A DNA stretch of 64,000 nucleotides. Source: Nemertoderma westbladi. Its lineage: Eukaryota > Animalia > Xenacoelomorpha. Position numbers and translations under genes: made by a program. Where the stretch lies: positions 1 to 64,000 of the forward strand of contig JAUCBJ010007510.1 of the NCBI GenBank assembly GCA_032718475.1. Direction: 5' to 3'. Below the pieces are notes generated by a model. That model saw only the letters and a list, made by a program, of their open reading frames with translations. It had not been told where the DNA came from and did no database searches. Positions within the stretch are counted from its first letter, which is position 1; the number at the start of each line of letters is the position of its first letter. This document shows, piece after piece, positions 12,001 to 54,254 of the stretch.

Positions 12001-13770
12001 TGACCCACCACTGCTGACACACACACTAACTTTACCTTTTGTAAACCTGACCCACCACTGCTGACACACACTAACTTTACCTTCTGTAAACCTGACCCAC
12101 CACTGCTGACACACACGAACTTTACCTTCTGTAAACCTGACCCACCACTGCTGACACCCACACACTAACTTTACCTTCTGTAAACCTGATCCACCACTGC
12201 TGACACCCACACACTAACTTTACCTTCTGTAAACCTGATCCACCACTGCTGGCACACACGAACTTTACCTTCTATAAACCTGACCCACTGCTGACACACA
12301 CACACACACACACGAACTTTACCTTCTATAAATTTGACCCACCACTGCTGACACACACACACTAACTTTGCTTTATGTAAACCTGACCCACCACTGCTGA
12401 CACACACGAACTTTACCTTCTGTAAACCTGATCCACCACTGCTGACACCCACACACTAACTTTACCTTATGTAAACCTGATCCACCACTGCTGACACACA
12501 CACGAACTTTGCTTTATGTAAACCTGACCCACCACTGCTGACACACACACACACTAACTTTACCTTTTGTAAACCTGATCCACCACTGCTGACACCAACA
12601 CCCTAACTTTACCTTCTGTAAACCTGACCCACTGCTGCTGACACCCATACACTAACTTTACCTTCTGTAAACCTGACCCACCACTGCTGACACACACTAA
12701 CTTTACCTTCTATAAACCTGACCCACCACTGCTGACACACACGAACTTTACTTTATGTAAACCTGACCCACCACTGCTGAAACACACACACGAACTTTAC
12801 CTTCTGTAAACCTGATCCACCACTGCTGACACCCACACATTAACTTTACCTTCTGTAAACCTGATCCACCACTGCTGACACCCACACACTAACTTTACCT
12901 TATGTAAACCTGATCCACCACTGCTGACACCCACAAATTAACTTCACCTTCTGTAAACCTGATCCACCACTGCTGACACCCACACATTAACTTTACCTTC
13001 TGTAAACCTGATTCACCACTGCTGACACCCACACACTAACTTTACCTTCTGTAAACCTGATCCACCACTGCTGACACCCACACATTAACTTTACCTTCTG
13101 TAAACCTGATCCACCACTGCTAACACCCACACACTAACTTTACCTTCTGTAAACCTGATCCACCACTGCTGACACCCACACATTAACTTTACCTTCTGTA
13201 AACCTGATCCACCACTGCTGACACCCACACACTAACTTTACCTTCTGTAAACCTGACCCACCACTGCTGACACCCACACACTAACTTTACCTTATGTAAA
13301 CCTGACCCGCCACTGCTGACACACACACACGAACTTTACCTTCTGTAAACCTGATCCACCACTGCTGACACTCACACACTAACTTTACCTTCTGTAAACC
13401 TGATCCACCACTGCTGACACACACACACACTAACTGTACCTTCTGTAAACCTGACCCACCACTGCTGACACAAACTAACTTTACCTTTTGTAAACCTGAT
13501 CCACCACTGCTGACACACACGAACTTTACCTTCTGTAAACCTGATCCACCACTGCTGACACCCACACACTAACTTTACCTTTTGTAAACCTGATCCACCA
13601 CAGCTGACACACACACACTAACTTTACCTTTTGTAAACCTGGCCCACCACTGCTGACACACACACACTAACTTTACCTTTTGTAAACCTGGCCCACCACA
13701 GCTGACACACACGAACTTTACCTTCTGTAAACCTGATCCACCACTGCTGACACACACACACTAACTGTAC
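1..13770. repeat. Tandem satellite, ~45-51 bp monomer AACTTTACCTT(C/T)TGTAAACCTGA(T/C)CCACCACTGCTGACAC(CA)n(CT/CG), with higher-order repeats; runs off the left edge
   Basis: The monomer is continuous to ...CTAACTGTAC at 13770. Length varies through the internal (CA)n and a 3-nt CCA deletion variant. Identical or near-identical ORF-track translations recur at offsets of about 2051, 2195, 4953, 7004 and 7488 bp. Confidence 0.98.
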
Positions 13771-13814: not shown

Positions 13815-14384
13815 TGTGAAGGGATCGGTCGACCCCGATTTATCCGGTTTGGTTGTTTGCTTACGCGTCCCCGCCGTGTGTAAAAGGAGTTATTGTAATT
13901 CTCCCGATGATGTTAATAATATATGTCGGTACGTATATGATAATATGAGATAATGAGATAACACAGTTAACGATGGTAATAGGCCTAAGTATACAGCAGT
14001 ACTGATGGATGATGGTGGCGACGACGGTAACAAAGTCACCGCTCTGCTGCTCTGCCCTGACTGCACTGAGATAACTGAGGTGAATGAATAGCACGACTGG
14101 TAATATATTGCACGGTTTGGCCTTATTACTGTACCTAGTCGATGCTGTCCCCCCATTGGCTAATATCCCACTTCTCGCCCTTTCACCTTCCCTGGTGTGT
14201 TTCCCGTTGCCCCTGTTGTTCTCTCTCTGTTAGGGGTTTGGCCCCTGACCCTTATTGTGTGTTTCTCCTTCCCACTTTATTGGGGTGACACGAGGTTGAT
14301 ATTGGTAATCAACCTCGTGCTCCCAATATTGCTTTACGGTTCTCACTTTATGGGGTTTGGTGAGGCGGAATTGATTCGCTAACA
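13815..14384 (-). repeat. Element 1 3' LTR (570 bp)
   Basis: Matches 21053-21620 with only a few differences; adjacent to the PPT. Confidence 0.95.
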
Positions 14385-14393
14385 CTCCCCCCC
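14385..14393 (-). promoter_or_regulatory. Polypurine tract of element 1 (equivalents at 30250-30258 and 48328-48336)
   Basis: The minus strand reads GGGGGGGAG directly into the LTR start TGTTA in all three complete copies. Confidence 0.85.
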
Positions 14394-14859
14394 ATGCTAT
14401 CTTCCCGGTGAGAAGATAGCATCAACCACTAAGTGCGCTTCAATTCCGCTGGAACTCGATCTATTATCGGGTGTGGGGTGGAGTTATTTTCTTGGAGTCG
14501 GCTTTCCAGGCCGCTCCCTATGGGTATGATCTCACTACCCTCTGGCGTCTCGTGTCGGGCCGATCGTGCGCTTCTCTCACACAATTTTTGTTTCCCCAAC
14601 ACTCTCACCACTCTAACTCCGCTCTCTGACTCAACTCGCTCTTACCCTCTCCCCACACCTGAATCGCACTCTTCTCTCTCGCCAACAGTTCCTTTCACTA
14701 TCTCCTCTCTACTCCCTGCCACTCTTTAAGGCCCTGACCTCTAATGCTACCCCTGTGCTATCATACTATCTACCTACTACTCACTTGCTAACTATCTAAC
14801 TCTCTTACTAACTCTAACTATCTCTCTAAGCCTACTAACTTTAACTCTAACTCTTCTAC

Positions 14860-15744: not shown

Positions 15745-16905
15745 CTAAACTCTAAGGTGCCCCTTCTTCCAGTTGGCACACTCCCACTGCCCTCCTATAT
15801 GTCCTCTTACTCTTTGCCACACCCTCTTCGCCAATTCCACCTGACCAGGGATTGGCTCTCCCCCTTTCACCACCCCAAGGTTGGGTCTCTCCATCGTCTT
15901 CTTAACTAGCTCGTCTCCTGGCATCAAATCCCTGCTGCCCCCCGCCGGCAGAACGAACCGAAAGTGAAAGAACAGGCAGAACAGAAGGTACAACAGTAGT
16001 CCCGTCCCCCTCCATCCTGCCTTCCTTCTCGACTTCCCCCTTGTCGGTATGCCTCCAACCCGGACCTGCGTCTCTTCCGGACACTCCTCTGGACACTCCT
16101 CCAGACACTCCTCTAGACACTCCTCCCGACACTCCTCCGGGCACTCCCCCGGAGTGTTGTCCTCCGGACACCTCGCCGTCCGCTCCGCTCCATCTCCATA
16201 CCGATGCTTGTTGGGAAACCTACTCTCCTCTGCCCACTTTCTTACTGTCACCTCCCTATCTGGCTCTACTATCTCCTGTTTCTCCTCTTCGTCCTCTGCG
16301 CCTGCGGTGCCTGGTAACATGCACCCTGATGTCTCTGTCACACTGCATGGGATCTTAGTTTTAACTGGGCCGCTAAGCATCCACCCGAACGGCGTGAGGA
16401 TCGCCGTCGGATCCCGCTGCCTGTCTTCGCCGAAGACCGTCTTCGTTCTCTCGTGGGCCGTCGGGCAGTCCATCCCTACTATAATGGACACCTTCCTAAC
16501 GTCCACCTTTGGTATTGAGAAATCGATACCGTCCAGGAATCTATATTGTTCGACCTCAATGTTGGTTGGTCGCCTGGCGTTGATGTTTATCGATTCTATG
16601 ACGTGGATGGGGTCGATCGTCGCCCCATAGTCGTATCCCGGTGCAATCGCTGCTATCCTGCACCGCCCCGCCCTCGTCTCCAGGACCTCATCTTTACTCG
16701 AGACGGTAGTCACCGCCATTCTGTTCGGCCTCGTCTTTAGCCCTATCTCTTCGGCCACCCAGTTCTCCACCAGCGTGAAGGCTGCTCCGCTGTCGACCAG
16801 CATTAATGTCGTTACTGATCGACCGCCCTCTCCTGATATCTTCACTGGTACTACCCCGAGTAGTACTTTTCTCTTCTTCTCCTCTTCTGTCGTGCTTGTG
16901 GCCAT
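15745..16905 (-). pseudogene. Element 1 ORF1 C-terminal part: BEL/Pao-type aspartic protease, frameshifted from gag
   Basis: Active-site motif LVDSGA, SIIVGMD and ILTPFGWMLSGP as in BEL proteases. The equivalent region is in frame with gag in element 3. Confidence 0.85.
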
Positions 16906-19184
16906 GCCTGGCCTCCAGTCTCGGACTCTCTAGCTGCTGTTTCTCTACACTCTCCGGATCTGTGTCCTTCTACCACACATCGATGACATAGTCCGTTTGC
17001 GTCTGTGTAGGCTATACGATCTTGTTTGGGCAACGCTTGCCAGTGCTTACAACTCCTGGTCTTATGTGTTCCGTCCCGGTGTAATTGACATTCGAATCCT
17101 GGATTATAGCGTTCCCTGTATAGTCCCTCACGTATCGCGCGTAGGTTTATATGTACCGATTTAGTGTTTTGGTTGTCTGTACTCGGCCTACTGGGTATAT
17201 TGGGATTGTGTTTATTTATGGTGTTATTTTCTTTCTGTCCCTGCCACGGTGTGGCCCTACTACCAGCTAACTGTGGACTAGCAGTCCCCTGTGTGGCCGC
17301 ATGTGGTAGTGACTGTCCTACTCTCGAGAATGGATCTGTCGGATTATGTTCGGGTTCAGGCCTGTTGTATTCGGTCTTTGGTGCCTTCCCCAAACTATCC
17401 TCACTATAGACTGGGTCTGTTATTAATTCGGCTTCATAGTTGAGGAAGCTCGACATCTCTTCTAGGCCCGGTTCCGCACCCTTCTTCTCCCGTGTGGAGA
17501 AGGCGATCTTCCTCCACTTCCTTCGTAACCAGATCGGCAGTGCCTGCGCTATCGTGGTGATGTTGTTAGACGCGTTGAGTTCGTATGGTGCGTCTAGCGT
17601 CTTTAACACGATTAACGCCTTCTCGACCTTGTTTGCAAAGGTCCTTATGCTAACGGGATTGTCCTGTAGGCCATCCGATGTTATGCCTCTCAGGGTTTGC
17701 CGGATGATCTTGGCCGGGTGCCCGTATTCCCTATCTAGCGCCCGCCATGCTGTCGTGAAGCCGCCCTCGATGCCCTGGTATTGCCTCACGATGTCGTATG
17801 CTGGGCCTCCTGTATATACTTGCAGATATTTTAGGCACTCCGCCTGCGTCAAGTTCTTACTTAATATTTCGTTACTATACATGCGCCGAAACTGTAGATA
17901 TTCTTCCGGCCTACTCCCATCGAATTTAAATGGTTCCACAGGTGGTAACTCGATCCTAGTTTTTAATGCATCGATCAATGTGGCCATTCCCATCGCTTGC
18001 GCTTCTAATGGGTTCGATGGATGTTGTATAGTTTCTCCTATTGGGTGCGGTCCGTTCGTCCTATCTGTTGTTGATTTTATTTGTTGCGTCGGATATATCA
18101 TTGGGGGTAACGGCCCCCTCCATATTTCCGTGTCGCATGATCTGTTCTCGTCCAAGGGGTTCGATGTTCTTGCTCCTATTGGGGTATATTGTTGATATTG
18201 TGATGGGGGAATGTCACCCTGTCCCCCTCCCACCGGTATGTTTGGTACTGGGGTTGATGTTAATATATTGGGGCCCATACATCTATCTGCAATAATTCCC
18301 CCCTCCCCTGGATATATGTTGTGTCCCTGGAAATTATAGTCATGCTGCTGTACCGGTACCGATATAGGCCTATTCACTTCTTGCCTACCTACCGGTATGT
18401 ACTCCGCGACTTCCGGGTTTAATCCCGTCGTCCGCGCTACCCTATCGCCTACTCTATCTCTCCCAGCATGGCCTATAATAGTATGTGCAGTAAGGCCTAC
18501 AGTATGTCCTGCAGTCTGCATGTGCCCTTCCGAATCGAAGTTTATTCTTCGCGAATCTCGAATCTCCCCGCGACTACCGTACTCTCGATCGGCAGCTATA
18601 TCCCGTCGGGAAGCTTCTCTTCGATCCCCTATCCTGCTCTCGTCTTCGTATCGGTACGTCCTGTACCCCTCTCTTGGTGTGCGGTGCGTTTCTCCGGGGC
18701 GACGGCAATCTCCCGAAGTTCGACCCCACTGACTCCCTACCTCCATCTCTACTATCGACGGCTCGCTATCCGTCCTCGCTCTCCGGTTGCTCCTAGCAAC
18801 GACTCTTCTATTATCTTCCTTTCTTCTCTCTTCGACCTCTCGGTTAAACTCTGCTAATCTTCTTCTATCTTCGACCTCTCTATTATACTCTACTAATCTT
18901 CTCCTATCTTCGACCTCTCTATTAAACTCTACTAATCTTCTCTCTTCTGACTGGGCTCGACGTTCCGTCGCCCGCCCTCTCGCGACGTCAACCTGTCTCT
19001 CTCTGCTCGATCGCACGCCGCTGGGGATACTCGCAATCCCCCTATTACTCTCCGTCGCCGGGTGTTGCGGTTTACCTAATTCGGCCCGCGCATTATCCGC
19101 CGACGCCTGTGGGACACTCCCTGCCCCCCCTCTCTCGCTACTAATCCCTCGCGGTGGGGTGCCCGTAGCCCCCCCCCCCCCCAC
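16851..19184 (-). CDS. gag: Element 1 ORF1 middle part: BEL/Pao-type Gag (DUF1759-like capsid region plus zinc knuckles)
   Basis: LPPVEPFKFDG..EYLQF, LKYLQVYTGGPA, AWRALDREYGHP; knuckles CQLHRDGTHKTRSC and CHRCVVEGHRSGEC. Confidence 0.85.
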   Translation of the reverse strand: MGGGGATGTPPRGISSERGGAGSVPQASADNARAELGKPQHPATESNRGIASIPSGVRSSRERQVDVARGRATERRAQSEERRLVEFNREVEDRRRLVEYNREVEDRRRLAEFNREVEERRKEDNRRVVARSNRRARTDSEPSIVEMEVGSQWGRTSGDCRRPGETHRTPREGYRTYRYEDESRIGDRREASRRDIAADREYGSRGEIRDSRRINFDSEGHMQTAGHTVGLTAHTIIGHAGRDRVGDRVARTTGLNPEVAEYIPVGRQEVNRPISVPVQQHDYNFQGHNIYPGEGGIIADRCMGPNILTSTPVPNIPVGGGQGDIPPSQYQQYTPIGARTSNPLDENRSCDTEIWRGPLPPMIYPTQQIKSTTDRTNGPHPIGETIQHPSNPLEAQAMGMATLIDALKTRIELPPVEPFKFDGSRPEEYLQFRRMYSNEILSKNLTQAECLKYLQVYTGGPAYDIVRQYQGIEGGFTTAWRALDREYGHPAKIIRQTLRGITSDGLQDNPVSIRTFANKVEKALIVLKTLDAPYELNASNNITTIAQALPIWLRRKWRKIAFSTREKKGAEPGLEEMSSFLNYEAELITDPVYSEDSLGKAPKTEYNRPEPEHNPTDPFSRVGQSLPHAATQGTASPQLAGSRATPWQGQKENNTINKHNPNIPSRPSTDNQNTKSVHINLRAIREGLYRERYNPGFECQLHRDGTHKTRSCKHWQALPKQDRIAYTDANGLCHRCVVEGHRSGECRETAARESETGGQAWPQARQKRRRREKYYSG

Positions 19185-19337
19185 CCGCTACTTCTAACTT
19201 CACTATCTCTTACTACACTTCTGCGTCCCTCTTGTCGGACACTCTCTACCCCCTTTCTCTCGCCACTAATCTTCTGTGGTGGGGCGCCCGTAGCCCCCCC
19301 CCCCCCCACCCGCCACTTCTAACTTCACTACCTCTTA

Positions 19338-20920: not shown

Positions 20921-21052
20921 TGTTATCTTGGGCAACTTTGGACCTCGTTACTGTTAGGGCAGCTGCTTGGTCTTTGTTACTGTTAGGGCAGCTGCTGCTT
21001 TGTTACTGTGTTACTGGCAGTCGCAGTCTCAGGCAGCTTGGGATTTTGTTAC

Positions 21053-21620
21053 TGTGACGGGATCGGTCGACCCCGATTTATCCGGTTTGGTTGTTTGCTT
21101 ACGCGTCCCCGCCGTGTGTAAAAGGAGTTATTGTAATTCTCCCGATGATGTTAATAATATATGTCGGTAAGTATATGATAATATGAGATAATGAGATAAC
21201 ACAGTTAACGATGGTAATAGGCCTAAGTATACAGCAGTACTGATGGATGATGGTGGCGACGACGGTAACAAAGTCACCGCTCTGCTGCTCTGCCCTGACT
21301 GCACTGAGATAACTGAGGTGAATGAATAGCACGACTGGTAATATATTGCACGGTTTGGCCTTATTACTGTACCTAGTCGATGCTGTCCCCCCATTGGCTA
21401 ATATCCCACTTCTCGCCCTTTCACCTTCCCTGGTGTGTTTCCCGTTGCCCCTGTTGTTCTCTCTCTGTTAGGGGTTTGGCCCCTGACCCTTATTGTGTGT
21501 TTCTCCTTCCCACTTTATTGGGGTGACACGAGGTTGATATTGGTAATCAACCTCGTGCTCCCAATATTGCTTTACGGTTTACTTTATGGGGTTTGGTGAG
21601 GCGGAATTGATTCGTTAACA
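21053..21620 (-). repeat. Element 1 5' LTR (568 bp)
   Basis: Direct repeat of 13815-14384, followed by TSD CATAC. Confidence 0.95.
21311..21400 (-). promoter_or_regulatory. Putative LTR Pol II promoter: CCAAT, TATA-like TATATTA and initiator TCAGTT (+1 near 21314)
   Basis: On the minus strand TATATTA starts at 21345, 31 nt upstream of the A of TCAGTT. Element 3 has the same spacing (TATAA at 41265, TCAGTT +1 near 41235). CCAAT lies near 21393-21397. Confidence 0.6.
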
Positions 21621-22977
21621 CATACGGATGATTTAGATCAGCAGAACTTCTGTGCAATATTTTATATTTGGGGCCCCATTGGATCAGTTATTGCATTTAG
21701 TTGCCCCTATAGAAGACTACTTCGTCTTCTTAATGCTTTATGACAGTATTATATCAGGCGCTGATCCAATGTAACCCCCCTTGTGTAACGGTTATAATGT
21801 TGTGCAGTGCATACATTTTACTTTATTGAGTTGGCCTGTAATCTATCCTAGTAAGTGATTTGTAGTGTAACTGCCAATGGGATTGCTTAGTGAGCAACCA
21901 GCTGGAGTGAATTGATTATCACATTGTTCTTTGTACATTTCTGCACATTTAAGGTGGTGTAGTTAGTATCCCGGCAGTCACTTAGAGTCATTTACGATAA
22001 CGATATTATTAGGTGTTTACCCGTTTATACTGGGAGCACAAATTCTTATGATTGTTATTCATATTATATTATTATTACAATATTCTATCTCTAATCTGAA
22101 TTCTCTTTTTTATAATTTGTTAACAACCATGTTGGGAGAGCTCCAACTGACTCGCCGAAAGATCCTTAGCCCCAATCTAGTTTCTGCTGCTAGCCGATCA
22201 ACTCAATTCTTTCCCTTTCAAAAAACTCACGAACCTAACGCATTCGTGTACAATAAGAATTTGTGTGCAGCGAATTGGTGCGTTCCATCTCGCCGAAAGA
22301 GTTGAAGTTTTGGATGCAGACTATCTGTTGGACTACGGATTTTCTAAAGGAGACATCGCATCTAAAGGTTGATCTTATCTATCTATTCACTGACTCTAGG
22401 ATGATTAGAGAAATTTCTTTATCAGGCTAAGTACCCGTTATTTATTACTTCGTGACTGAATGAAATTCTAACAGGCTACTAAACTCGATTCAGAAGTTAT
22501 TCTCGCTAACATTGTGTCATATGTTTTCCGGTCGTTAGGGACACATCGGGCAAACCGACGTTGTTTGTCCGCTGGTACTCTCATATCTGTAAACGAGGGA
22601 TTATAATCCCTAGCCTCACGAAATAATAGTAAAATAGTTACTTTTGGCTGTTTTTTTTTTAAGTTCTGCTGATCGTATTTTGGTACATTGGTTGAATGAT
22701 TTCGGCCAATGGTTTTATAATTTGTTAATATTCTCTGTCATAATTTTTGCAAGACGACTCATACTGCCCAGTGCAAAAACCATTTATATCCGGTCGGTTG
22801 TTTTAAGACAATTTTTACCCTGATCTTTCCGTATTGTAAACGGAATTATTATACCATTGGTGAGCTCTGTAAATAATTGGTTTAATTATTTTCAGGTTGC
22901 CTGCGGGTAATTTACCTTTTGTATGCTTTGTTTATTTTTAGGACTTTAGTATACTGCACATTTATTGCTACAAGAAA

Positions 22978-25900
22978 ATGTCAAGTCTTAATGTTGGTAT
23001 AGGACCTGGATCCCCAAGGAGTGGAGTGTCTCTGGTTGGTGACCCGTTGTTGGTTGGCGTCCCCATCGCTGACCTCACTGCGGTAAGTCATTCCGAGTTG
23101 GTGTCCGGCCACAAACCGTCCATTCCAGCACCAGCTGATATCACATTAAGTACAGCGGTCGCGTTGAAAAGGTCTCACTATCGGGGTGAGCCGTGTTATG
23201 ATGAGGGCCCGCGGCATGCCTCCATTGGTTCAGCAAACGGCCCCTTAACTCGCCTGAGGGGCAGCGGTACCCCCAGCTCAAACATGGTTGCTAGTGTGAC
23301 AAGTGTGGGTACCATAAACCGAGGTTTGGGACAACTCTATCGCCACCTGGAATCGGGGTGTGAGGAGATCAACAAAGCACGGGTAAGTTCCACTGTTGAC
23401 TCTGCCATTTTATACACACTGACACAGAAACTCATTGCCAGGTTTGTCAAGATTAAGGATCGTGTAACACAATTAGAGCGTTACTATATGAGTGTAATGG
23501 AACCAGTGAGGACTATGAACAGGTAACTTCTAAGTTTAATTATTATAGAGACTTGTACCATAAAGCTATTGAGACTCCAGCTCATTCTGTAAGTATCCAG
23601 GTCACTCCCCCTAGAGAAGTAATTAAAGCTATTACCCACCCGCCCTCAGAGGTACAGAATCTGCAAAGGACATCCGGTGAAGTATTAAACTCTAATTATT
23701 ATGGCCCGCCTGGGCCAGAACCGGTAGTTGGTGGCACCGCTAATTTAATCATCGATGCTTTAAATCCCAATAAGGTTAGTACTTACTCTGTGGGACATGG
23801 GGTCCCTAGGCAAAGACAGGTTAGTGTGGGGGGTGCATCACATTTGTCAGGTAGCTCCTCGAGCTCATCCAAAGTCCAGCGGCTCGCCGAAGCCAAATTA
23901 GCAGAACTAGAAGCATCCAGGCTCAAGAGACCCTTAGGCGACAGGAAATTGTTGACCGTGAACGCCATCGTATTCAAGTAGACCTTGAGGCTACACGAAT
24001 TTCGGAGGCTGGCCAAGAAACTATCTTGAAAGCCACAAAAGCAGCTGAGAAGGCTAAGGAACAAGCAGATGAAGAAACTAGGAAGGCAGAAGCACAGGCC
24101 ATCAAAGCTGTTGCTGAGGTCAAACGTGTAGCTGCGCCCAATGAACGTCTACAGGTACTAGAAAGTGCAGAGTTATGGTGTCGAGCGCAAAATGTCAGGG
24201 ACCAATGTAGAAGCCTCTAGTGCCTCTAGTGGCTCTAGAAGCTGACCCGACGCCATTTCTTGGGGATCCCAAGAAATTTGTGTCTTTGAAAAATCGCTTT
24301 ATGGCTCAAGTGCATTCGAAAGATGTCACTGATGACATCAAATTACGCTATTTGGTCACCTATGTTAAAGGTAAACCTCTGGACCTCATAGAGCATTTTG
24401 AGGGTATGACTAATGGATATCAGCTGGCATGGGAAACCCTAGAAAAGAACTATGGGAATCCGGCTTTAATAATTAAGGCTGTCATCGAGGATGTCACACG
24501 ATGTCGCTTTCCCATAGAAACACCTAGTGATGTAAGGAAGTATGCCCATGATGTGCGATGCACTATGGATGTGCCATGGACTTTAAATTGCCCATAATAT
24601 GTCAACAACCCCGATTTTATTCAGGGAGTAGCTGTGAACCTTAATGATAGGATGAGGTTACGGTGGGCGAGGAGAGTTACTAGGTTTAGACAGGACCGAG
24701 GAAGTGACCCAGGACTTAGACAGTTAGTGGCTTTCTTAGAAGAGGAATCTGACCTCCTAAACTGTCGTATGTATGGTAGGCCAGCCACTGAATCTATTCT
24801 CAGAGAAAGGATGGGGGACAAATTCCATGGTTTTGGGACAAAACCATTGCCATTAGCAGGTGACAAGTGTGACCGCCGGGCTACTCGCAATGTTCATCAC
24901 GTCCCGGAGACACCACGCTTCCCCTCAATCGACGGTAAACAACGGCTTATGACATCATTCCATGAGGAACATTGTGTAGGTCCTGAGGTTATGGAGGAAC
25001 CATCCTTTTCAGAAGCTAGCGGTGTAGATACTGACAACATTGATAAATTTTCCTGTGAGGCTTATGCAGTAAATCCACAGCATTCCTGCCAAATGTGTAA
25101 GGAGAATCATGGTTTATTTAACTGTCAGCGGTTTCGTGAAATATCTCCGAGGGCAAGGTGGGAGTTTGTAGTTGAACATAAGCTATGTCTGAGATGTTAG
25201 AGACGTGGACATTGGCGTGATGGGTGCAAAGCCCAGTTCCGTTGCAAGCAGTGTCAGCGACCCCATTCCTCACTGCTGCACCCCGAAAATTTTGAAACAA
25301 AGGACACTGATGAACGACTAAAAAACTTTTACGCGGCGAAACGAGATGATGCCTCTTCGAGACTAAAGGATTACTTACCAGATAAGGTAACACAGAGTAG
25401 GCCACCATATGGAATATATCAAAGAGTAACAGCTATGGCTACTTATATGATGGACCGCAGAGTCCAGGGGACAGATCAGACTGCTTTAGCTGCAGTATTC
25501 CTTAAGGTACTCCCTCTAGCGGTTTCAAATGCCGCAACAGGGGCAGTACTGACTACATTTGTGCTGCTTGATGACGGTTCTACAGGTACGTTTTTGGATG
25601 CCCATGTAGCGACGTGTTTAGACATGAACTTGCAGGCACTAAATATTTCAATTAATACTGTACTTACTAAGGATGAAACCAGAACAGTTATGCAGAGTAA
25701 CTGTCGAGTATCATCAGTAATGCCAAACACCGACATGGTTCTGGCGCTAAATGATGTGGTGGTGATGGACGGACTAAGTTTGAGGTATTCTAGACCGGGG
25801 TCGTGGTCTCTAGAACAACTGTCTTATTTGAGGGACATAGACCTAGCATATCCAGAAGTGGATGTTGACAAGATTTCCATGATTGTTGGCTTAAATAATC

Positions 25901-27420
25901 CGTTGGTGCACAAAAAACTTGAGGAGGTGTGGGGTCCAACAGATTACGACAAGTTGCACAATCCTCACGCAGTTAGAACACCTTTAGGTTGGACATTAGC
26001 AGGTCCCATTACATCAACTGTGGCAAACTCATGCTTGGGCCCGAATGAAAATTATAAGGCATCTGCTGATTCATCCCCTCGCATACGAAATTGCTCAGTA
26101 GCTCAACCTCTTGAAATATTAGGAGCATCAACTAATTTTGCTGACAATAAGGATAAAGTCTTTGTATATCATATAGACTGTTGTCCCTGGAGGGGAGACA
26201 ACAGAATGGACGACGAAATAACATCGGACTTGATGACTAAGTATTTTGACTCAGAAGCATTTTATTGTCCATCTAAAATGCAGACCAAATCAGTAGAGGA
26301 TCGCAGGTGTGAGGAAATTTTAGACGCCACTACAACCCTTGTTAACGGACACTACTCTGTAGGTATGCTGTGGCATGATGCTAACAAACCATTAATCAAT
26401 AATAAACAACTTGCTATTTCCCGATTACGTTGGATTAAGCGAAAGTTAAAGGGTATGCCCGAGGAACATAAAACGTACCAGGAAGCTCTACATGACTATG
26501 AAATAAAGGGTTATGCTCGTAGGTTATCAATGGAAGATAAATTAGCACCAGACGGACCAAGGAAATATTATGTCCCTACTCATCCTGTTTGGAATCCAAA
26601 TAAGCCAGGTAAACTGCGCATAGTTAACGATGCAGCCGCCACAAATCGAGGTATGAGTTTAAATAGTGAACTTATGGAAGGACCTAACAATTATAACTCG
26701 ATCCTGGATGTTCTACTTAGATTCAGGGAACATAGGTTTGTATTTGCATGTGATGTAGCCAAGATGTTTCATCAGGTTAGGACTCCTCCGAGGGACTCTC
26801 AATCTCGGAAAATCCTATGGTATGAAGGTGATGTTGAACCAGCCGATTTTAGTGGATATATTGTTTATCAGATGCTAGTTAGCATGTTCGGGGCCAAGGA
26901 CTCTCCTTGTAGGGCCACCCATGCATTACGTAAAACAGCACTAGATAATGTAGCATTGTTTGACGACAAAATAATTAAAGCAATAATACATAACTTTATT
27001 ACTCAATATTATGCCAATATTACTCAAGGGTAAGCAATTTATAAAAAAATTATGGAGTCAGAAACTGGCATGGGACACAAAACTAGACATTAATCTAGAC
27101 ACAGAGTGGAATGCTTGGTATGCGAATCTGCCAGTACTGGCGAAGTTAGAGATTCCGCGTTCATATTTTTATGGCCAAGTTAGAGACCCTACAGACATCT
27201 ACGAACTACATCACTTTTGTGACGCTAGTAAAGTTGGTTACGGTTGCATATCTTACATTAGACGAGTACAGAGATTGGGGGACATAACATGCGCTATGGT
27301 GCACGCTAAGACTCGGACGGCTCCAATCAAACAGGTTGATATCACAAGGTTAGAGTTGCAGTCAGCACTACTTCTAGTCCGTAGTCACAGACAGATAATT
27401 AATGCACTCACATTACCGTT
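22978..27420 (+). pseudogene. pol: Decayed BEL/Pao retrotransposon gag-pol (Gag, three zinc knuckles, PR, RT, RNase H), truncated by element 2
   Basis: Gag FLGDPKKF..LRYL..AWETLEKNYGNP; knuckles CQMCKENH..C, CLRC*..H..C and CKQC..H..LLH; PR LLDDGS; RT NPNKPGKLRIVNDAAA, DVAKMFHQV and FGAKDSP; RNase H LHHFCDASKVGYG, AKTRTAP and RLELQ. Multiple stops and frameshifts; the YVDD segment is deleted near 27000. Confidence 0.92.
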
Positions 27421-27981
27421 TGTTAGCGTATTCAATTCCGCTAGCCAGCCCCACAAAGTAGGCTTTAAGCAATATTGGGAACACGAGGTTGATTGCCAAT
27501 ATCAACCTCGTGTCACCCCAATAAACGGGGACAACAGGCCCCAGGGGAACACACACAGCGGGGGTCAGAGGTTATACCTCCGGGAGGGAGAGAGTGACAG
27601 TAGCGGGGGGGGAAGAGAGTAAAGGGTGAGAAGTGAGTTATTAGCCAATGGGGGGGAAGCATCGACTGAGTAGTGCAATGCGGCCAACCGTGCAATATCT
27701 TACCAGTCACCATGTATATTCATTCACTTGTAGTAAGTCAGTTAGTAGGGACAGTACCGGAACTCTAATTACCGTCTCCGTCCGCTGTCAGAAATATATA
27801 TTATCATTACCAGTACACTACATCAAACGTCAACTATTCGTGCTATTACCATTTGTTATATTATATCCTTGAGCCTATATACACCGATCAATCAATAACT
27901 CAGAACTCTTTCACATACACACGGCGGGGACGCGTAGATTAAAAACCGGATAAACCGGGATCCTCCATGGATCCCGTCACA
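27421..27981 (+). repeat. Element 2 5' LTR (561 bp)
   Basis: Reverse-complement homologue of the other LTRs (CACGAGGTTGAT hairpin, CACGGCGGGGACGCGT, GGATCCCGTCACA end). Confidence 0.9.
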
Positions 27982-28098
27982 GTAATTAGATCCAACATCT
28001 GTCCTGAGTGATTAGATCGAGCAGCTGCCCTAGTAATTAGAACCAACACTGCTGCCCGAGACTGTGACTACCAGCCACCAATCTAAAGTAAAGATAAG

Positions 28099-29711: not shown

Positions 29712-30249
29712 TGTGACGGGATCCAGGAGGGATCCCGATTTATCCGATGTGGTATTTAGTCCACGCGTCCCCGCCGTGTATAAGAGTGAAATAAAGATAA
29801 CTGAGTTCTGAAGTTCGGTGTATAATAATAGGTTATAGGATATAGATATATTGTGAATTATACGGTAGGCGGGATACGGTAACTAAAGTCCCGTGATCCC
29901 CTAACTAAACTAATTGGCTGTACCCTACGCTAGCACTGCTGCACTGAGATAACTGAATCACTGATTAATAGGTTATTGGTTATATTGCACGGTGGCCTTA
30001 CTGCTACTCAATCGATGCCATTCCCCCCTCTGATTGGTTAATACCCTTGTTGGCGCCCCGTGGAGTATTCCCGTTCACTCCACCTGTTCTCCTTGGGTTA
30101 GGGGTTTGGCCCCTGACCCTCTATTGTGTGCTTCCTTCCCACTCTTATTGGGATGGCACGAGTTGGTTAATTGCCCAATCTCGTGGCTCCCAATATTGCT
30201 TATCGGCTTACAACTTTATGGGGTGTTGGCGGGATTGAATAAGTTAACA
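29712..30249 (-). repeat. Element 3 3' LTR
   Basis: Direct repeat of 40993-41530. Confidence 0.96.
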
Positions 30250-30964
30250 CTCCCCCCCATGCTATCTTCCCGGTAAGAAGATAGCATCAACCAAAAAAAG
30301 TGCGTTACAATCCCGCTGGATCCCGATCTAGTATCGGGTGTGGGGTGGAATTCTTTTCTCTAGGAGCCGGCTTTCCAGGCCGCCCCCTATGGGTATGATA
30401 ACGCTACCCTGTGTGCCTGGCGTCTCATGTCGGGCCGATCGCGCTCACCTCTTCACGCGATTTTTGTTTCCCCAACATTTTCGCCCTATCTCACCTTCAC
30501 CTTCACTCTCACCCTAACTCTCTCATACCCTAGGACCTCCTCGTCCCTCACTCAGCCTCTTATTCTCCCCCCCCACACTAGAATTGCGTTCGCACTCTCT
30601 CCGCACTTCGCACTCTTATTCCGATTCTCAACTCCACTTTGACTGTTTTATCTCTCCTGACGAACCTCCCCCCCTCTCTCGTGCCGTCGCACTCAAGAAG
30701 CGTGAAATTGTCAGTTGTCTCGTCCATAGTGCCATAGTCTGTTGTCCCCCAGTCCCAGTAGCTAATTGAGAAAGGTTGTATGACTATAGTACTTACTCCA
30801 AACGTATGTATTTTACTGCTAATCACTACGTACGTACATACGAATTGCACTTATATGGTTATTTGCATTAATTAAATTTATACTTAATAGTTCGTACGTT
30901 ACATGCGGCGCCTTCCAGGCGCACCACTTCCCAGTCTCAGTCTCATTCCCTCGTCTCCGGGAAC

Positions 30965-33480: not shown

Positions 33481-33989
33481 TCCGAACACTACACTCGCTC
33501 ACCTGCAGGGTGGTGCCTTACCAAGGCGCAATACAGATGAGTGATGTATTAAGATGTTTCGTACAGTTCGATAATGGCCTACTTTTCTACTTAACTGCGC
33601 CTTTCAAGCTTAATTTAATCTAATTAATTTCGGAGCTAGTAAATCAGCCTAATTTACAATTTCCGTCCGTTACTTTTATTATGTTCTAGAACGACTTTCC
33701 TTGTGTTACCACTATTTTCCGATTTTTAGCCCTATTCTATTTATTTATTTATTTTGCTTTGATTCTACTGTCTTACTACTTACTACTGCCTATGGATTTT
33801 ATTCTATTCTCTCTCTGATCCATATTCTGGCCTACTCTGTGGGCCTATGCAGTACAGCAGTATGCGTCGTGTGGCCACACGATTTATCCAGCTGCACTCA
33901 TATGCCCCCCTCTCGCTACTAACTCTACTTACTGCTAACTAATATCTATATCCTATTTACCCCTTTTACCTCTTACTCTCTCTCTCTAA

Positions 33990-34769: not shown

Positions 34770-37700
34770 TTACGGATCTAACTCTTCCATCCCAGTCCAA
34801 CCTGTTGGACAACTCAGCGACCCAAGGGGTGATTCCTCCAGCAGGCAACTCTCCCACTGCCCCCCTATAGGTTCTCTAATTCTTCGCTCCACTCTCCTTG
34901 TCAATTCGATAGGTGGTCTTTTCTCCTGTTTTGGCAAATGCTGTCTCCTATTTATGTTTCTGATCTCGTGGTCGTCCCTTGGCGGCAAAGTGCCACCCTT
35001 CAACGTGTCACCCGGCGGTATAATGCCGCCCCTGTTCTTCTCCTTAATTTTAGATGCCACCTCTGTTGGCCTCCCCCTTAATATGTGTGCTGGCATTAAA
35101 GGCTTCAACGACCCCCGTTCGTCCTTCGGTATACACGATGTCTGCCCATGTAATGCCCCCTCGCACTCTGTCGGTTCCGCGTGCATACGCAGCACGCCTC
35201 CTACTCTCCCGCCTCCTTTGTCCACCATATGTTTATTCATGGGCTTCTCTGCCCCTGGTCTGATCGTCTCACATCTTCTCCCTTTCCCTCTTGTATTCTT
35301 ACTCGGCTTCCCCCTTGTCGGTATGCCTCTCAACCGGACCGGCGTCTCTTCCGGACGCTCCTCTGGACACTCCACCGGACACTTCTCCGGTTTGTCCTCC
35401 CGACACTCCACCGTCCGCTCCTCTCCATCTCCATACCGATACTTGCTGGGACCCTTATTCCAACCCATCGCCTCTAGGTCTTCCGCATCCATACCATTCT
35501 CCTCCGCCCACTCTCTTGGTGTTGCTTCTACTTCTAGCTGTCTACCACTATTGCCCATCTCTGGCCTCTCCTCTATTTCGTCAGTTCCTGGCATCATGCA
35601 TCCTGAGCTCTCGGACACATGGAATGGTATATTACTCTTAATTGGGCCTGTCAGTGTCCACCCGAATGGTGTTAATATTGCCACCGGGTCACTCTGCTTG
35701 TCTTCGCCGAAGACCGTTTGCATTCTCTCGTGGGCTGTTGGGCAGTCCATGCCTACTATGATGGATACCTTCCTAACGTCCACGTCTGGGATTGAGAAGT
35801 CAATGTTGTCCAGGAATTTGTATTGCTCGACCTCGATGTTGGTTGGCCGCCTGGCATTGATGTTAATTGACTCTATTACTTGGATGGGGTCGATGGTTGC
35901 CCCATAATCGCATCCTGGTGCCACTGCTGCAATTGCGCACCGTCCTGTCCTCATCTCTAGGATCTCGTCTTTGCTAGAGATGGTTGTCACCGCCATCCTG
36001 CTTGGCCTCGTTCTCAACCCTATTTCTTCGGCTACCCATTCCTCAACTAATGTGAAGGCAGCTCCACTATCAACCAGCATTAGTGTTGTTACTGATCGAT
36101 TGCCTTCCCCGATCACTCGTACTGGTACTACTCCAAGTAGCACTGTTCCTCTCTTCTTCGCCCCTACTGTGCTCGTTGCCATCGTCTGGCCTCTCCTTTG
36201 GCCAAACTTGACCGGCTTCTCTAGGCATTCCCTGGCCTTGTGTCCACTCTTCACACATCGCGAGCAGATTTTATTGCTCGACGCGTAATCTATCTGGTCT
36301 TGCCTCGGTAGCGCCTGCCAGTACCTGCAATTCATAGTTTTATGAAGCGCATTTGCGTGTAGCTGGCATTTGCTCTTTGGGTCGTAGCCCTCTTTATACA
36401 ATGCATTGCGTATCGCAGTTATATTCGTACCAAAGTCCCTACTATTCTTATTGACTGGATTTGGCCTACTGGACGTACTGGGGTTATGTTTATTCATGTC
36501 GTTATTGTTCCCCTGTCCGTTCCATGATGTTGTCTTATCTTCGTTTGCCTGTGGACTTGCAGTCCCCTGCGTCGCTGCGTATGGCAATGATTGTCTGAGC
36601 CTCGGCAATGCGTTTGATGTATTGTGCTCTGGTTTGGGCCTGTAGTGATCTGTCTTTGGTCCCTTTCCCAGGCTATCTTCACTATAGACTGGGTCCGTTA
36701 TTAGTTCAGCCTCGTAATTTAAGAAGTTTGACATTTCTTCTAAACCTGGTTCCGCACCCTTCTTGTCTCGGGTGGAGAAAGCGATCTTCCTCCATTTGTT
36801 GCGCAGCCAGCTCGGTAGTGCCTGCGCTATCGTGGTGATGTTATTGGACGCGTTGAGCTCGTATGGCGCATCTAGCGTCTTCAGCACGATCAGCGCCTTC
36901 TCGACTTTGTTAGCAAACATCTTAATGCTAACGGGATTATCCTGTAGGCCACCCGATGTTATGCCTCTCAGCGTTTGCCTGATGATCTTGGCCGGGTGCC
37001 CGTATTCCCTATCCAGTGCCCGCCATGCTGTCGTGAAGCCGCCCTCTATTCCCTGATATTGCCTCACGATGTCGTATGCTGGGCCTCCCGTGTATACTTG
37101 TAGATACTTTAGGCACTCCGCCTGCGTCAAGTTTTTTGTTAGTATATCGTTACTATACATTCGCCGAAACTGTAAGTATTCTTCCGGCCTGCTCCCATCG
37201 AATTTGAACGGTTCCACGGGTGGTAATTCGATCCTCGTTTTCAACGCATCGATCAACGTGGCCATCCCCATTGCCTGCGCTTCTAATGGATTCGACGGGT
37301 GCTGTATAGTTTCCCCTGTCTGGTGCGGTTCGTCCGTCCTATTTCTTGATCTTCTCTGACTCGGATATGTCATCGGGGGTAGCGGCCCCCTCCATATGTC
37401 TGTATCACACGACCTGTTTTCATCTAGGGGTCTCGTTGTTCTTGTTCCTGTCGGGGTATATTGTTGATATTGTGATGGGGGAATGTCACCCTGTACCCCC
37501 CCCACCGGTATGTCTGGTACTGGGGTTGATGTTAATATGTTGGGGCCCATACACCTATCCGCAATAATTCCCCCTTCCCCTGGGTATATGTTATGTCCCT
37601 GCATGCTGTAGTCATACTGCTGTGCTGGTACCGGTATAGGCCTATCAGCTTCTGGCCTACCCGCCGGTATGTATTCCGCGACTTCCGGGTTTAATTCCGT

Positions 37701-38255
37701 CGTTCGCGCTATCCTATCGCCTATATATCCTCTCTCAGTATGGCCTATGGTATGTGCAGTAAGACCTACAGTATGCCCTACAGTCTGCATGTGTTGCTCG
37801 GGATCGAAGTTTATTCTTCTCGAATAATCCTCCCCGCGGCTACCGTATTCTCGATCGGTAGGTATATTCCGTCGGAAAGTTTCTCTTCGACCCCCCTCCC
37901 CACTGTTTTCATCTTCGTACCGGTACATCGCGTACCCCTTTCTCGGCGTGTAATGCGTCTCACCGGATCGCATCCCTCCGGGGCGACGGCAATCTCCCGG
38001 AGTCCGACCCCACTGACTCTCCGTTCTCATCTCGACTATCGACGGCTCGCTGTCCGTCCTCGCTCTTCTATCTTTTGCGGCGATACTTCTACTACTCTCT
38101 TCCTCTCTTCTCCTATCAGTGGAATATTCCCGCTCACGAGATCTCTCGTCGACCTCCCGGTTAAACCCCACTGTTCTTCTTTCCTCCTCTGATCGGGCTC
38201 GACGCTCCGTCTGCCCTCCCGCGACGTCAACCTGTCTTTCTCTGCTCGATCGCAC
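34770..38255 (-). CDS. gag: Element 3 ORF1 main part: Gag, zinc knuckles, aspartic protease and a low-complexity C-terminal tail; no RT
   Basis: 1161-aa open frame containing the BEL Gag motifs, CQLHANALHKTMNC, CSRCVKSGHKAREC and LVDSGA. It ends without any RT motif. Confidence 0.9.
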   Translation of the reverse strand: MRSSRERQVDVAGGQTERRARSEEERRTVGFNREVDERSREREYSTDRRREEESSRSIAAKDRRARTDSEPSIVEMRTESQWGRTPGDCRRPGGMRSGETHYTPRKGYAMYRYEDENSGEGGRRETFRRNIPTDREYGSRGEDYSRRINFDPEQHMQTVGHTVGLTAHTIGHTERGYIGDRIARTTELNPEVAEYIPAGRPEADRPIPVPAQQYDYSMQGHNIYPGEGGIIADRCMGPNILTSTPVPDIPVGGVQGDIPPSQYQQYTPTGTRTTRPLDENRSCDTDIWRGPLPPMTYPSQRRSRNRTDEPHQTGETIQHPSNPLEAQAMGMATLIDALKTRIELPPVEPFKFDGSRPEEYLQFRRMYSNDILTKNLTQAECLKYLQVYTGGPAYDIVRQYQGIEGGFTTAWRALDREYGHPAKIIRQTLRGITSGGLQDNPVSIKMFANKVEKALIVLKTLDAPYELNASNNITTIAQALPSWLRNKWRKIAFSTRDKKGAEPGLEEMSNFLNYEAELITDPVYSEDSLGKGPKTDHYRPKPEHNTSNALPRLRQSLPYAATQGTASPQANEDKTTSWNGQGNNNDMNKHNPSTSSRPNPVNKNSRDFGTNITAIRNALYKEGYDPKSKCQLHANALHKTMNCRYWQALPRQDQIDYASSNKICSRCVKSGHKARECLEKPVKFGQRRGQTMATSTVGAKKRGTVLLGVVPVRVIGEGNRSVTTLMLVDSGAAFTLVEEWVAEEIGLRTRPSRMAVTTISSKDEILEMRTGRCAIAAVAPGCDYGATIDPIQVIESININARRPTNIEVEQYKFLDNIDFSIPDVDVRKVSIIVGMDCPTAHERMQTVFGEDKQSDPVAILTPFGWTLTGPIKSNIPFHVSESSGCMMPGTDEIEERPEMGNSGRQLEVEATPREWAEENGMDAEDLEAMGWNKGPSKYRYGDGEERTVECREDKPEKCPVECPEERPEETPVRLRGIPTRGKPSKNTRGKGRRCETIRPGAEKPMNKHMVDKGGGRVGGVLRMHAEPTECEGALHGQTSCIPKDERGSLKPLMPAHILRGRPTEVASKIKEKNRGGIIPPGDTLKGGTLPPRDDHEIRNINRRQHLPKQEKRPPIELTRRVERRIREPIGGQWESCLLEESPLGSLSCPTGWTGMEELDP

Positions 38256-38381
38256 GTCGCTGGGGATACTCGCAATCCCCCTATTACTTTCCGTCGCCGG
38301 TTGTTGCGGTTTACCTTGTTCGGCCCTCGCATTGTCCGCTGACGGCTGTGGGACACTCTCTGCCCCCCCCCCCTCTCGCCG

Positions 38382-40878: not shown

Positions 40879-40992
40879 CTCGTTTGTGGCTGATGATTCG
40901 GCTAGCTAGGTTGCAGTTCTTAGAGTTTAACTAGGGCGGTAGCTCGGTTTAGTTACTGTGTTTAGCTGGGGAAACAACACCGTTTTAGTTAC

Positions 40993-41530
40993 TGTGACGG
41001 GATCCAGGAGGGATCCCGATTTATCCGATGTGGTATTTAGTCCACGCGTCCCCGCCGTGTATAAGAGTGAAATAAAGATAACTGAGTTCTGAAGTTCGGT
41101 GTATAATAATAGGTTATAGGATATAGATATATTGTGAATTATACGGTAGGCGGGATACGGTAACTAAAGTCCCGTGATCCCCTAACTAAACTAATTGGCT
41201 GTACCCTACGCTAGCACTGCTGCACTGAGATAACTGAATCACTGATTAATAGGTTATTGGTTATATTGCACGGTGGCCTTACTGCTACTCAATCGATGCC
41301 ATTCCCCCCTCTGATTGGTTAATACCCTTGTTGGCGCCCCGTGGAGTATTCCCGTTCACTCCACCTGTTCTCCTTGGGTTAGGGGTTTGGCCCCTGACCC
41401 TCTATTGTGTGCTTCCTTCCCACTCTTATTGGGATGGCACGAGTTGGTTAATTGCCCAATCTCGTGGCTCCCAATATTGCTTATCGGCTTACAACTTTAT
41501 GGGGTGTTGGCGGGATTGAATAAGTTAACA
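40993..41530 (-). repeat. Element 3 5' LTR
   Basis: Direct repeat of 29712-30249, followed by TSD TAGAA. Confidence 0.96.
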
Positions 41531-44500: not shown

Positions 44501-45243
44501 TGGCGATTTTAACACCATTCGGGTGGACGCTGACCGGCCCAATCAGAACCAATATACCATTTAGTGTAACCGAGACTTCAGGGTGCATTGTGCCAGGGAC
44601 TGTTGAAGAGGTAGAGGAGAAGCAAGAGACGGGCGATAGGGGGAGACAGCTAGAAGTAGAAGCAACACCAAGAGAGTGGGCGGAGGAGAATGGCTTGGAT
44701 GCAGAAGATTTAGAGACAATGGTTTGGAACAAGGATCCCAGCAAGTATCGGTATGGAGATGGAGAGGAGCGGACGGCGAGATGTCCGGAGGACTAACCGG
44801 AGAAGTGTCCGGTGCAGTGGCAGGTGGACAATAGTCCGGAGGAGTGTCCGGAGGAGTGTTCAGAGGAGTGTCCGGAAGAGACGCCGGTCCGGTTGAGAGG
44901 CATACCGACAAGGGGGAAGCCGAGTAAGAAGACAAGATGGAAAGGGAGAGGATGTGAGAGGATTAGACCAGGGGCAGAGAAGCCCATGAGTAAACACAAC
45001 AGAGGAGCCGGGAAAGTAGAAGGAGGCGTGTTGCATACGCACGCGGGACTGACAGAGTGCGAGGGGGCATTACATGGGCAGAGATCGTGTATACCGAAGG
45101 ACGAACGGGGGTCGTCGAGGCCTTTAATGCCAGCACACATATTAAGGAGGAGGCCAGCAGAGGTGGCATGTAAGAATAAGGATGACACCAGGGGCGGCAT
45201 TATAACGCCGAGCGACGAGTTGAAGGGTCGCACTTTGCCGCCA
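41536..45243 (+). pseudogene. gag: Element 2 ORF1 continuation: 60-bp repeats, Gag, knuckles and protease (frameshifts; stop at 44794-44796)
   Basis: ORF 42457-44796 carries the same Gag and LVDSGA motifs as element 3. Confidence 0.88.
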
Positions 45244-47784: not shown

Positions 47785-48327
47785 TGTGACGGGATCTACG
47801 GATCCCGGTTTATCCGTTGGGTTTTCTATCCACGCGTCCCCGCCGTGTGTGAAAGGTAAAAGAGTTCTGATGTTCGGTAATATGTATAAAGGTATAATAT
47901 AGTCTGATAGTTGATATAGTATAGTACGACACTTTACCGGTAGATAAGTATGATGGCGGTAGCGGACGGTGACAGAAGTCCCCGTTCCACCCTACTGATC
48001 TGACTGAGTAAACTAAACTGAATAGGGAAGCACCAATAGGTAATATATGTACTGCACAGTTGGCCATATTACTGTACCTAGTCGATGCTGTCCCCCCATT
48101 GGCTAATATCCCACTTCTCGCCCTTTCACCTTCCCTGGTGTGTTTCCCGTTGCCCCTGTTGTTCTCTCTCTGTTAGGGGTTTGGCCCCTGACCCCTATTG
48201 TGTGTGTCTCTCCTTCCCACTCTATTGGGGTGACACGAGGTTGATATTGGTAATCAACCTCGTGCTCCCAATATTGCTTTACGGCTCACTCTATGGGTTT
48301 GTGTTAGCGGAATTGGATAAGCTAACA
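47785..48327 (-). repeat. Element 4 3' LTR
   Basis: Direct repeat of 53712-54254. Confidence 0.96.
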
Positions 48328-53647: not shown

Positions 53648-53711
53648 CTTCGTCTTTGGTGGCTGGCAGCCACAGTCTGTCAGGGCAGCTGGGCGGATCT
53701 GATTCTGTCAC

Positions 53712-54254
53712 TGTGACGGGATCTACGGATCCCGGTTTATCCGTTGGGTTTTCTATCCACGCGTCCCCGCCGTGTGTGAAAGGTAAAAGAGTTCTGATGT
53801 TCGGTAATATGTATAAAGGTATAATATAGTCTGATAGTTGATATAGTATAGTACGACACTTTACCGGTAGATAAGTATGATGGCGGTAGCGGACGGTGAC
53901 AGAAGTCCCCGTTCCACCCTACTGATCTGACTGAGTAAACTAAACTGAATAGGGAAGCACCAACAGGTAATATATGTACTGCACAGTTGGCCATATTACT
54001 GTACCTAGTCGATGCTGTCCCCCCATTGGCTAATATCCCACTTCTCGCCCTTTCACCTTCCCTGGTGTGTTTCCCGTTGCCCCTGTTGTTCTCTCTCTGT
54101 TAGGGGTTTGGCCCCTGACCCCTATTGTGTGTGTCTCTCCTTCCCACTCTATTGGGGTGACACGAGGTTGATATTGGTAATCAACCTCGTGCTCCCAATA
54201 TTGCTTTACGGCTCACTCTATGGGTTTGTGTTAGCGGAATTGGATAAGCTAACA
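53712..54254 (-). repeat. Element 4 5' LTR
   Basis: Direct repeat of 47785-48327, followed by TSD GATGA. Confidence 0.96.

Follow-up and report, generated by a model that had tools for sequence, protein, structure and literature searches.

The window, by which we mean the whole 64,000-nt stretch analysed here (Nemertoderma westbladi, contig JAUCBJ010007510.1, positions 1 to 64,000), consists of nested retroelements that follow a 49-bp satellite and include four related long terminal repeat (LTR) elements, E1 to E4, as well as a neighbouring BEL element coding for reverse transcriptase (RT), E0 (Table 1). The satellite occupies positions 3-13770 in 288 copies and shows a higher-order period near 2051 bp and a strong strand skew. 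Neither a tRNA gene nor an Rfam match was found in the window. The 3' LTR copies, together with target duplications of 5 bp, fixed the LTR ends of E1, E3, and E4 independently of the pairing described below. The LTRs are 538 to 570 nt long, run from TG to CA, and lie inside the 0.2- to 1.2-kb range of BEL/Pao elements (Belpaoviridae); a polypurine tract (GGGGGGGAG) stands before the 3' LTR, and a 5-bp target duplication was present in all three complete elements. Between the two LTRs of one element we counted no substitution in E3, one in E4, and four plus one 2-nt gap in E1; E1, E3, and E4 are young insertions. A conserved hairpin, GCTATCTT...AAGATAGC, is found directly 5' of the polypurine tract in all three complete elements (14385-14425, 30250-30290, and 48328-48368, minus strand), and an alignment inspected by eye revealed several conserved inverted repeats in U3 (the 21621-21400 region of each LTR), with letters that differ between subfamilies.

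Table 1. Features of E0 to E4 in the window (PBS, primer-binding site)
Feature	Position	Strand	Remarks
E1	21620-13815	minus	complete; target duplication GTATG
E1 5' LTR	21053..21620	-	568 nt; TG...CA
E1 predicted primer seed	21265..21272	-	TTTGTTAC, then CGT
E1 invariant motif	21104..21113	-	GGCGGGGACG; predicted to form helix P2 with the bases that follow the primer
E1 bulged second PBS-like copy	21093..21102	-	inside LTR; weak support
E1 hairpin	21058..21075	-	5 nt before LTR end
E1 PBS	21045..21052	-	GTAACAAA; abuts LTR end
E1 gag and protease	15745..19187	-	BEL-type gag with DUF1759 and zinc knuckles, plus aspartic protease; two frames; not followed by pol
E1 3' LTR	13815..14384	-	polypurine tract before LTR; target duplication GTATG
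E0 predicted self-primer	22037..22049	+	CACAAATTCTTAT; inside LTR
E0 PBS	22253..22265	+	13-bp complement; abuts LTR end at 22252
E0 coding remnants	24244..27420	+	gag, protease, RT, Peptidase_A17; broken, cut off by E2 insertion
E2	from 27421	plus	interrupted by E3 at 29711/41531; without 3' LTR in window
E2 5' LTR	27421..27981	+	561 nt; end rests on alignment
E2 upstream R segment	27723..27763	+	interrupted pairing with leader 27991-28026
E2 predicted primer seed	27764..27772	+	TCTAATTAC
E2 invariant motif, PBS-like copy, terminal hairpin	27923..27976	+	27923-27932, 27934-27943, 27956-27976
E2 PBS	27982..27990	+	GTAATTAGA
E3	41530-29712	minus	complete; target duplication TTCTA
E3 5' LTR	40993..41530	-	538 nt; identical to E3 3' LTR
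E3 upstream R segment	41169..41193	-	pairs with leader 40983-40959; 3/1000 shuffles
E3 predicted primer seed	41160..41168	-	TTTAGTTAC
E3 invariant motif, PBS-like copy, terminal hairpin	40998..41056	-	41056-41047, 41045-41036, 41018-40998
E3 PBS	40984..40992	-	GTAACTAAA
E3 gag-protease frame	34770..38381	-	1203 aa; without RT, RNase H, integrase
E3 3' LTR	29712..30249	-	target duplication TTCTA
E4	54254-47785	minus	complete; target duplication TCATC
E4 5' LTR	53712..54254	-	543 nt
E4 predicted primer seed	53896..53904	-	TTCTGTCAC
E4 invariant motif, PBS-like copy, terminal hairpin	53717..53771	-	53771-53762, 53760-53751, 53734-53717
E4 PBS	53703..53711	-	GTGACAGAA
E4 3' LTR	47785..48327	-	target duplication TCATC

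A BEL-type Gag (DUF1759 above the cut-off, zinc knuckles) with a protease was identified in E1, E2, E3, and a fifth fragment, and E4 has lost this part. No pol domain (RT, RNase H, or integrase) was found in E1 to E4, a tblastn search with six BEL pol regions matching only E0, and a Ty3/gypsy chromovirus pol with a chromodomain was likewise absent. The best protein relatives were BEL polyproteins of 22 to 34% identity, with the top ones at 30%; among the 10 best-scoring ones scanned, DUF1759 was present in all and Peptidase_A17 in the 7 long ones, and no gag-protease relative of near length was found. Gag and protease are under strong purifying selection, with a dN/dS of 0.04 to 0.15 at a dS of 0.4 to 1.0 for each of the two domains in five between-subfamily pairs (the sixth pair was nearly identical and uninformative). 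As judged from their coding part, E1 to E4 are non-autonomous BEL/Pao derivatives and not members of the Tf1/sushi group, which agrees with the BEL/Pao origin assigned to the family in the preliminary description, given the DUF1759 gag, the aspartic protease, and nearest proteins that are full BEL polyproteins. Having no pol, they would depend on RT provided in trans. E3 has an additional reading frame in the pol position (30965-33498, minus strand; 695 aa, and a further 154 aa in a different frame) with a related copy at 45200-46576; it has CCHC-like knuckles and no Pfam match, and an Atlas search gave only a weak lead (0.78).

The bases directly behind each 5' LTR turned out to be the reverse complement of a segment within the same LTR. 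The longest perfect match in the element's own LTR was 8 bp for E1 and 9 bp for E2, E3, and E4, while all 12 comparisons with the LTR of another element gave only 4 to 6 bp. Dinucleotide-shuffled LTRs reached the observed length in 16, 13, 14, and 8 of 5000 cases for E1 to E4, and the flanks behind the three 3' LTRs gave best self-matches of 4, 4, and under 4. With the columns anchored on the LTR end and on the AC that ends the seed (MAFFT misaligned the E3 seed), 35 of 36 cells were Watson-Crick pairs and five of nine columns had changed on both sides; this covariation comes from no more than four copies in which seed and PBS are linked, and these share descent. The preliminary description had reported four differing sites, each complementary to its own partner, and all eight stretches read as it gave them. 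Its 11-bp match for E1 shrinks to 8 perfect pairs, or 10 of 11 if one mismatch is allowed, the pairing itself being real, and its view that pairing stops exactly at the LTR boundary holds insofar as a C-A mismatch lies there, with two more possible pairs beyond it. That no TGG of a tRNA-type PBS follows the 5' LTRs was likewise borne out: the first 39 nt behind each of the four LTRs contain none, the first 200 nt behind those of E1 to E3 contain none either, and the first in E4 is at +40. Nor do E1 to E4 have an 18-nt PBS matching the 3' end of tRNA-Arg or -Gly, which serves as a BEL/Pao criterion. The 3' LTRs share this terminal CA, so the primer's 3' end must be located at it, which excludes a tRNA site further downstream.

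The E1-E4 family is very abundant and diverse, as contigs from public DNA runs compared with E3 indicated, although seed and PBS variants stay unlinked in these; one run presumed to be RNA contributed 7 short contigs that covered the upstream LTR only. Contigs of other copies often break at 40982-40991 (within the interval 40833-40991), near the far end of the 9-nt PBS, as though between-subfamily conservation stopped there. The LTR motif of the family had no match in viral or metagenome contigs. The short tandem units of the leader repeat each element's own PBS variant (21006-20973, 28008-28040, 40956-40949, and 53683-53676), which dates their origin or homogenisation to after the divergence of the variants.

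Taken alone, the seed is weak (-6.9 to -11.9 kcal/mol), and its predicted pairing depended on the segment folded, ranging from under 0.01 to 0.96 and not exceeding 0.41 for E1. The roughly 45 nt that precede the seed also pair colinearly, with interruptions, with the leader behind the PBS, and for this reason the primer is likely to be a 5' piece of the transcript of about 50 nt, as modelled here, rather than a free-standing internal 9-mer. In E1 to E4, only 1, 0, 11, and 0 of 462 to 492 other LTR windows paired with the leader as well as the 25 nt preceding the seed. Against shuffled sequences the extension was clear in E2 (21/1000) and E3 (3/1000) and not in E4 (90) or E1 (948), and the assignment of each extension to its own leader came second of 24 at 25 nt and first of 24, with a margin of 0.3 kcal/mol, at 40 nt. 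Start sites were predicted from CCAAT, TATA-like, and initiator-like TCAGT/TCATT motifs and place the AC at about +50 in E1, E2, and E4 and at +67 to +76 in E3. The seed had earlier been placed 40 to 70 nt below the start rather than at +1; the predicted distance of about 50 to 76 nt is close to this, and, like that of Tf1, the primer may nevertheless start at +1. Canonical poly(A) signals are absent 3' of the seed in E1, E3, and E4.

The best partner of the bases that follow the seed (CGT...) was the invariant motif GGCGGGGACG in all four elements, although this helix, P2, was no better than shuffles element by element (83 to 281 of 1000). A hairpin is predicted 5 nt before the LTR end in all four as well. 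Just after the invariant motif, 36 to 40 nt before the LTR end, each element contains a bulged copy of the PBS, and the fold that uses this inner copy lies within about 1 kcal/mol of the priming fold. Its own-pair assignment ranked 1 of 24; compared with shuffles it was significant in none of the four elements (Fisher p 0.19) and in 5 of 20 spliced relatives (Fisher 0.003), described below.

E0, the RT-coding neighbour, shows a similar arrangement. Its 13-bp direct self-complement was not reached in any of 5000 shuffles, and its LTR end was confirmed by loose ends of other copies at 22252 in four of four runs from three samples. A 17-bp splice joint in E0 was set aside for its non-canonical donor. 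The E0 LTR has no similarity to those of E1 to E4, and the E0 protease is 31% identical to that of the window family. In a gag-plus-protease tree (68 of 92 rows) the window family was sister to E0 with a support of 1.00, a grouping that joins two long branches, and loci L001 and L005 (both spliced) and L003, from the set described next, adjoined the pair with a support of 0.93.

An alignment of 14 BEL polyproteins led to 87 loci, 78 of them metagenomic (from the best 80 of 524 stretches) and 9 on contigs filed in prokaryote genome bins; viral contigs gave no match. The latter nine BEL/Pao-bearing contigs (L079-L087) are likely animal host DNA binned in. Direct self-matches in these autonomous loci were mostly short, yet lay right behind splice-acceptor tracts. 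In 9 of 14 loci with repeat-defined LTR ends, the PBS complements the joint of a predicted GT-AG intron inside the LTR over 10 to 15 bp; of the remainder, two have a TGG site and three no good joint (one end in this set was moved by hand by 6 nt, and one LTR was taken as the last 600 nt). A strict scan, for which a GTRAG donor, a YAG acceptor, and a site 0 to 4 nt after ACA or ATA were demanded, covered 75 loci, 12 of the 87 having been dropped for short upstream DNA; its filters, like those of the direct-form motif test, were chosen after the pattern had been seen. The predicted exon-exon joint matched the PBS in 27 of the 75 loci, at 21 distinct sites (L001, L004, L005, L010, L013, L014, L017, L020, L027, L028, L033, L034, L043, L044, L046-L048, L050, L051, L065, L068, L070, L073, L076, L079, L083, and L084), against 0 to 5 matches for 18 sets of decoy signals. 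Decoys in the wrong context gave 0, 2, 10, 0, 1, and 0 matches, the 10 overlapping true TACA ends. Splice-joint complements outside the strict filter were also seen in L011 and L086, and a looser junction scan was rejected as non-specific (34 of 75, decoys 10 to 26).

Without splicing, all 21 sites pair over only 4 to 8 bp, and the predicted pairing of the spliced and unspliced forms had medians of 0.835 and 0.005, respectively, the spliced form scoring higher at 14 of 18 sites. The spliced-form primer ends in AC at 14 of 21 sites, with CG next at 7 of 21, and AATAAA or ATTAAA lies at most 100 nt from the acceptor at 18 of 21 (a count with no null run). TATA boxes stand upstream of the donor at 8 of 21, at distances of 36 to 345 nt, which vary too widely for start sites to be placed. 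In 3 of the other 48 loci we found a direct 11-bp primer ending in AAC|CG (L022, L030, and L085); L012, labelled a direct form in the RT tree, failed the motif test. The remaining 45 of 75 loci show neither form of self-primer, two of them being tRNA-type by the TGG motif and many without a whole LTR. In the RT tree (86 rows, FastTree, midpoint root, no named references) the spliced forms were spread across, with direct forms among them, and L022 was sister to the spliced L027/L028 (0.96). The upstream extension was not general among autonomous loci (2 of 20, Fisher p 0.09). Splicing does not better the pairing of the window family, whose best GT-AG joints reached 5, 6, 9, and 6 bp, none with good signals.

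Since the PBS is the reverse complement of a stretch of the element's own LTR, self-priming with the element's own RNA is likely, and we hold it to be quite probable, on these sequence comparisons, that the pol-less BEL/Pao elements of the window prime minus-strand synthesis in this way, like Tf1, with RT provided in trans. The use of their own RNA as primer, already proposed in the preliminary description, gains support from the RT-coding BELs with the same arrangement and is amended as to the RT in trans and the primer of about 50 nt. The transcript would start about 50 nt (67 to 76 in E3) upstream of the AC, and its 5' piece would fold onto the PBS and the leader behind it by a perfect seed and an interrupted extension. 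A cut at AC|CG, at the junction with the second helix, would free a 3' OH that primes across the LTR end, and the RNase H of the partner would probably make this cut, as RNase H does in Tf1. The R sequence left downstream of the cut would allow strand transfer, and a long primer with pairing all along it would help the second strand transfer as well. In most of the autonomous relatives sampled, the primer would exist only once the predicted LTR intron is spliced. The intron would then be inherited only via an unspliced 3' copy, and the progeny of a spliced 3' copy would lack it and carry a ready-made primer. Such intron-free forms of the splice-built primer would be represented by the window family, E0, L022, L030, and L085, as expected if the 3' R copy was also spliced before copying. 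We lean slightly towards a wider reading, in which a broad BEL/Pao radiation uses a self-primer assembled by the spliceosome and the window family is an escaped, intron-free, pol-less offshoot with a ready-made primer of about 50 nt, a two-state fold, a decoy PBS, and RT in trans; reverse transcription in that radiation would depend on removal of the intron from the 5' copy, with the intron retained in the 3' copy.

Chance or base composition, for which it speaks that the matches are short and the copies related, is an extremely improbable source of the pairing in view of the 8 to 16 of 5000 shuffles per element, the matches confined to the diagonal, and the five compensated columns. Use of the PBS by a host tRNA fragment, through anticodon-loop priming, or by another small RNA, with the LTR match as a structural mimic, is also highly improbable. 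A Val-type half with UAC/CAC at its end would, to pair with the fifth PBS base, need a purine at tRNA position 32, where tRNAs almost always carry a pyrimidine. Half-tRNA priming does exist, in copia, Ty5, and fungal Helenus (accessible parts of PMC6317226 and PMC10886601), but here the four sites and the fifth of E0 would each need a fragment of their own that also matches their own LTR at one homologous place, and the 21 distinct sites of the relatives match splice joints.

The pairing could be real but regulatory (in dimerisation, packaging, translation, or poly(A) control), with priming by something else. The seed does have other partners, in the bulged inner PBS copy with its nearly equal fold, and further PBS copies stand in the leader. 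This account nevertheless appears improbable, for the perfect partner lies flush with the LTR end in all four elements and E0 and 0 to 4 nt off in the relatives, the 3' LTRs end at the first PBS copy and not at those of the leader, no other priming signal is present, and the inner copy alone was not significant in the window. The elements might also be chimeras in which a BEL gag-protease sits between Tf1/sushi-type Ty3/gypsy LTRs and is mobilised by a gypsy RT, self-priming then not being a BEL property. The lack of pol and of LTR similarity to E0 would fit, as would the GTAAC that opens the PBS of E1 and E3 (ATAAC in Tf1, according to the available text of PMC11042837) and LTR ends that resemble the rGmr1/Sushi motifs tabulated in PMC3601003, as far as its accessible part goes. 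The RT-coding BELs, however, show the same priming geometry and the same AC|C end, and purifying selection on the BEL gag-protease would fit co-assembly with a BEL Gag-Pol, which makes a chimeric origin very improbable.

Self-priming by the element's own RNA would be a trait that E1 to E4 share with Tf1/sushi, whose pol has a chromodomain, whereas E1 to E4 code for a BEL/Pao gag-protease. E1 to E4 have a perfect seed of 8 to 9 bp and a predicted interrupted extension of about 50 nt, whereas the Tf1 primer, of 11 nt, is short and fully paired. Self-priming has been described for Tf1/sushi and predicted for Tcn1 and TAR (accessible parts of PMC6317226, PMC4600332, PMC10085805, PMC5341516, PMC6934838, PMC3601003, and PMC11042837). 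Tf1/Tf2, Tj1, Tosmo, and Tf1/sushi likewise have a PBS directly after the CA of the LTR that is complementary to an LTR-derived 5' segment of the mRNA, use no tRNA, and, in Tf1/sushi, form a multi-helix "pretzel" fold around the primer (PMC4600332, PMC10085805, and PMC5341516, in the sections available). Compared with the three-duplex pretzel of Tf1 as far as these sections depict it, P2 and the terminal hairpin are predicted in all four elements, but the partners differ and P2 is not above shuffles; the partner of the second helix lies 50 to 60 nt before the PBS in E1 to E4 and beside it in Tf1. The primer of the BEL relatives, unlike that of Tf1/sushi, spans a predicted splice joint.

BEL/Pao elements have, according to the ICTV profile, an 18-nt PBS for tRNA-Arg or -Gly and a pol gene (PMC8742986). 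E1 to E4 resemble them in their TG...CA LTRs of 0.5 kb, polypurine tract, DUF1759 Gag with zinc knuckles, and aspartic protease, and differ in having neither a tRNA PBS nor pol (PMC8742986). Complementarity between LTR and PBS also led to the proposal of self-priming in the Tcn1 (Ty3/gypsy) and TAR/Houba/Osr-1 (Ty1/copia) plant lineages, which belong to other superfamilies and hosts and were found as direct matches of at least 10 bp, a method that would miss a splice-built primer; the Tcn1 and TAR lineages show that self-priming arose in more than one superfamily (all from the accessible part of PMC6317226). A search of open-access full-text articles returned no report of self-priming or of a splice-built primer in BEL/Pao in the texts as far as they were accessible; in the parts available, the term "PBS" is absent from PMC3118150, PMC554778, PMC2774666, and PMC6238403, and self-priming of BEL elements goes unmentioned in PMC8220671, PMC13524379, and PMC10886601.

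Self-priming of the Tf1 type being already known, what is new on our best reading would be its occurrence in BEL/Pao, with a predicted splice-joint primer in the relatives, and this putative splice-built primer is the most surprising part. Reference descriptions present BEL/Pao elements as tRNA-primed and their replication as poorly understood. If correct, the proposal would extend self-priming to a third LTR superfamily, account for the lack of an evident PBS in many BEL elements, let annotators place LTR ends by an exact rule, and link retrotransposition to host splicing.

Elsewhere in the window, E2 (plus strand) and a 98% identical copy (minus strand, from 58116 downward) abut tail to tail at 45243-45294, both without 3' ends, and LINE elements with PHD finger, endonuclease, and RT domains are present at 58235-63345 and 46655-47680.
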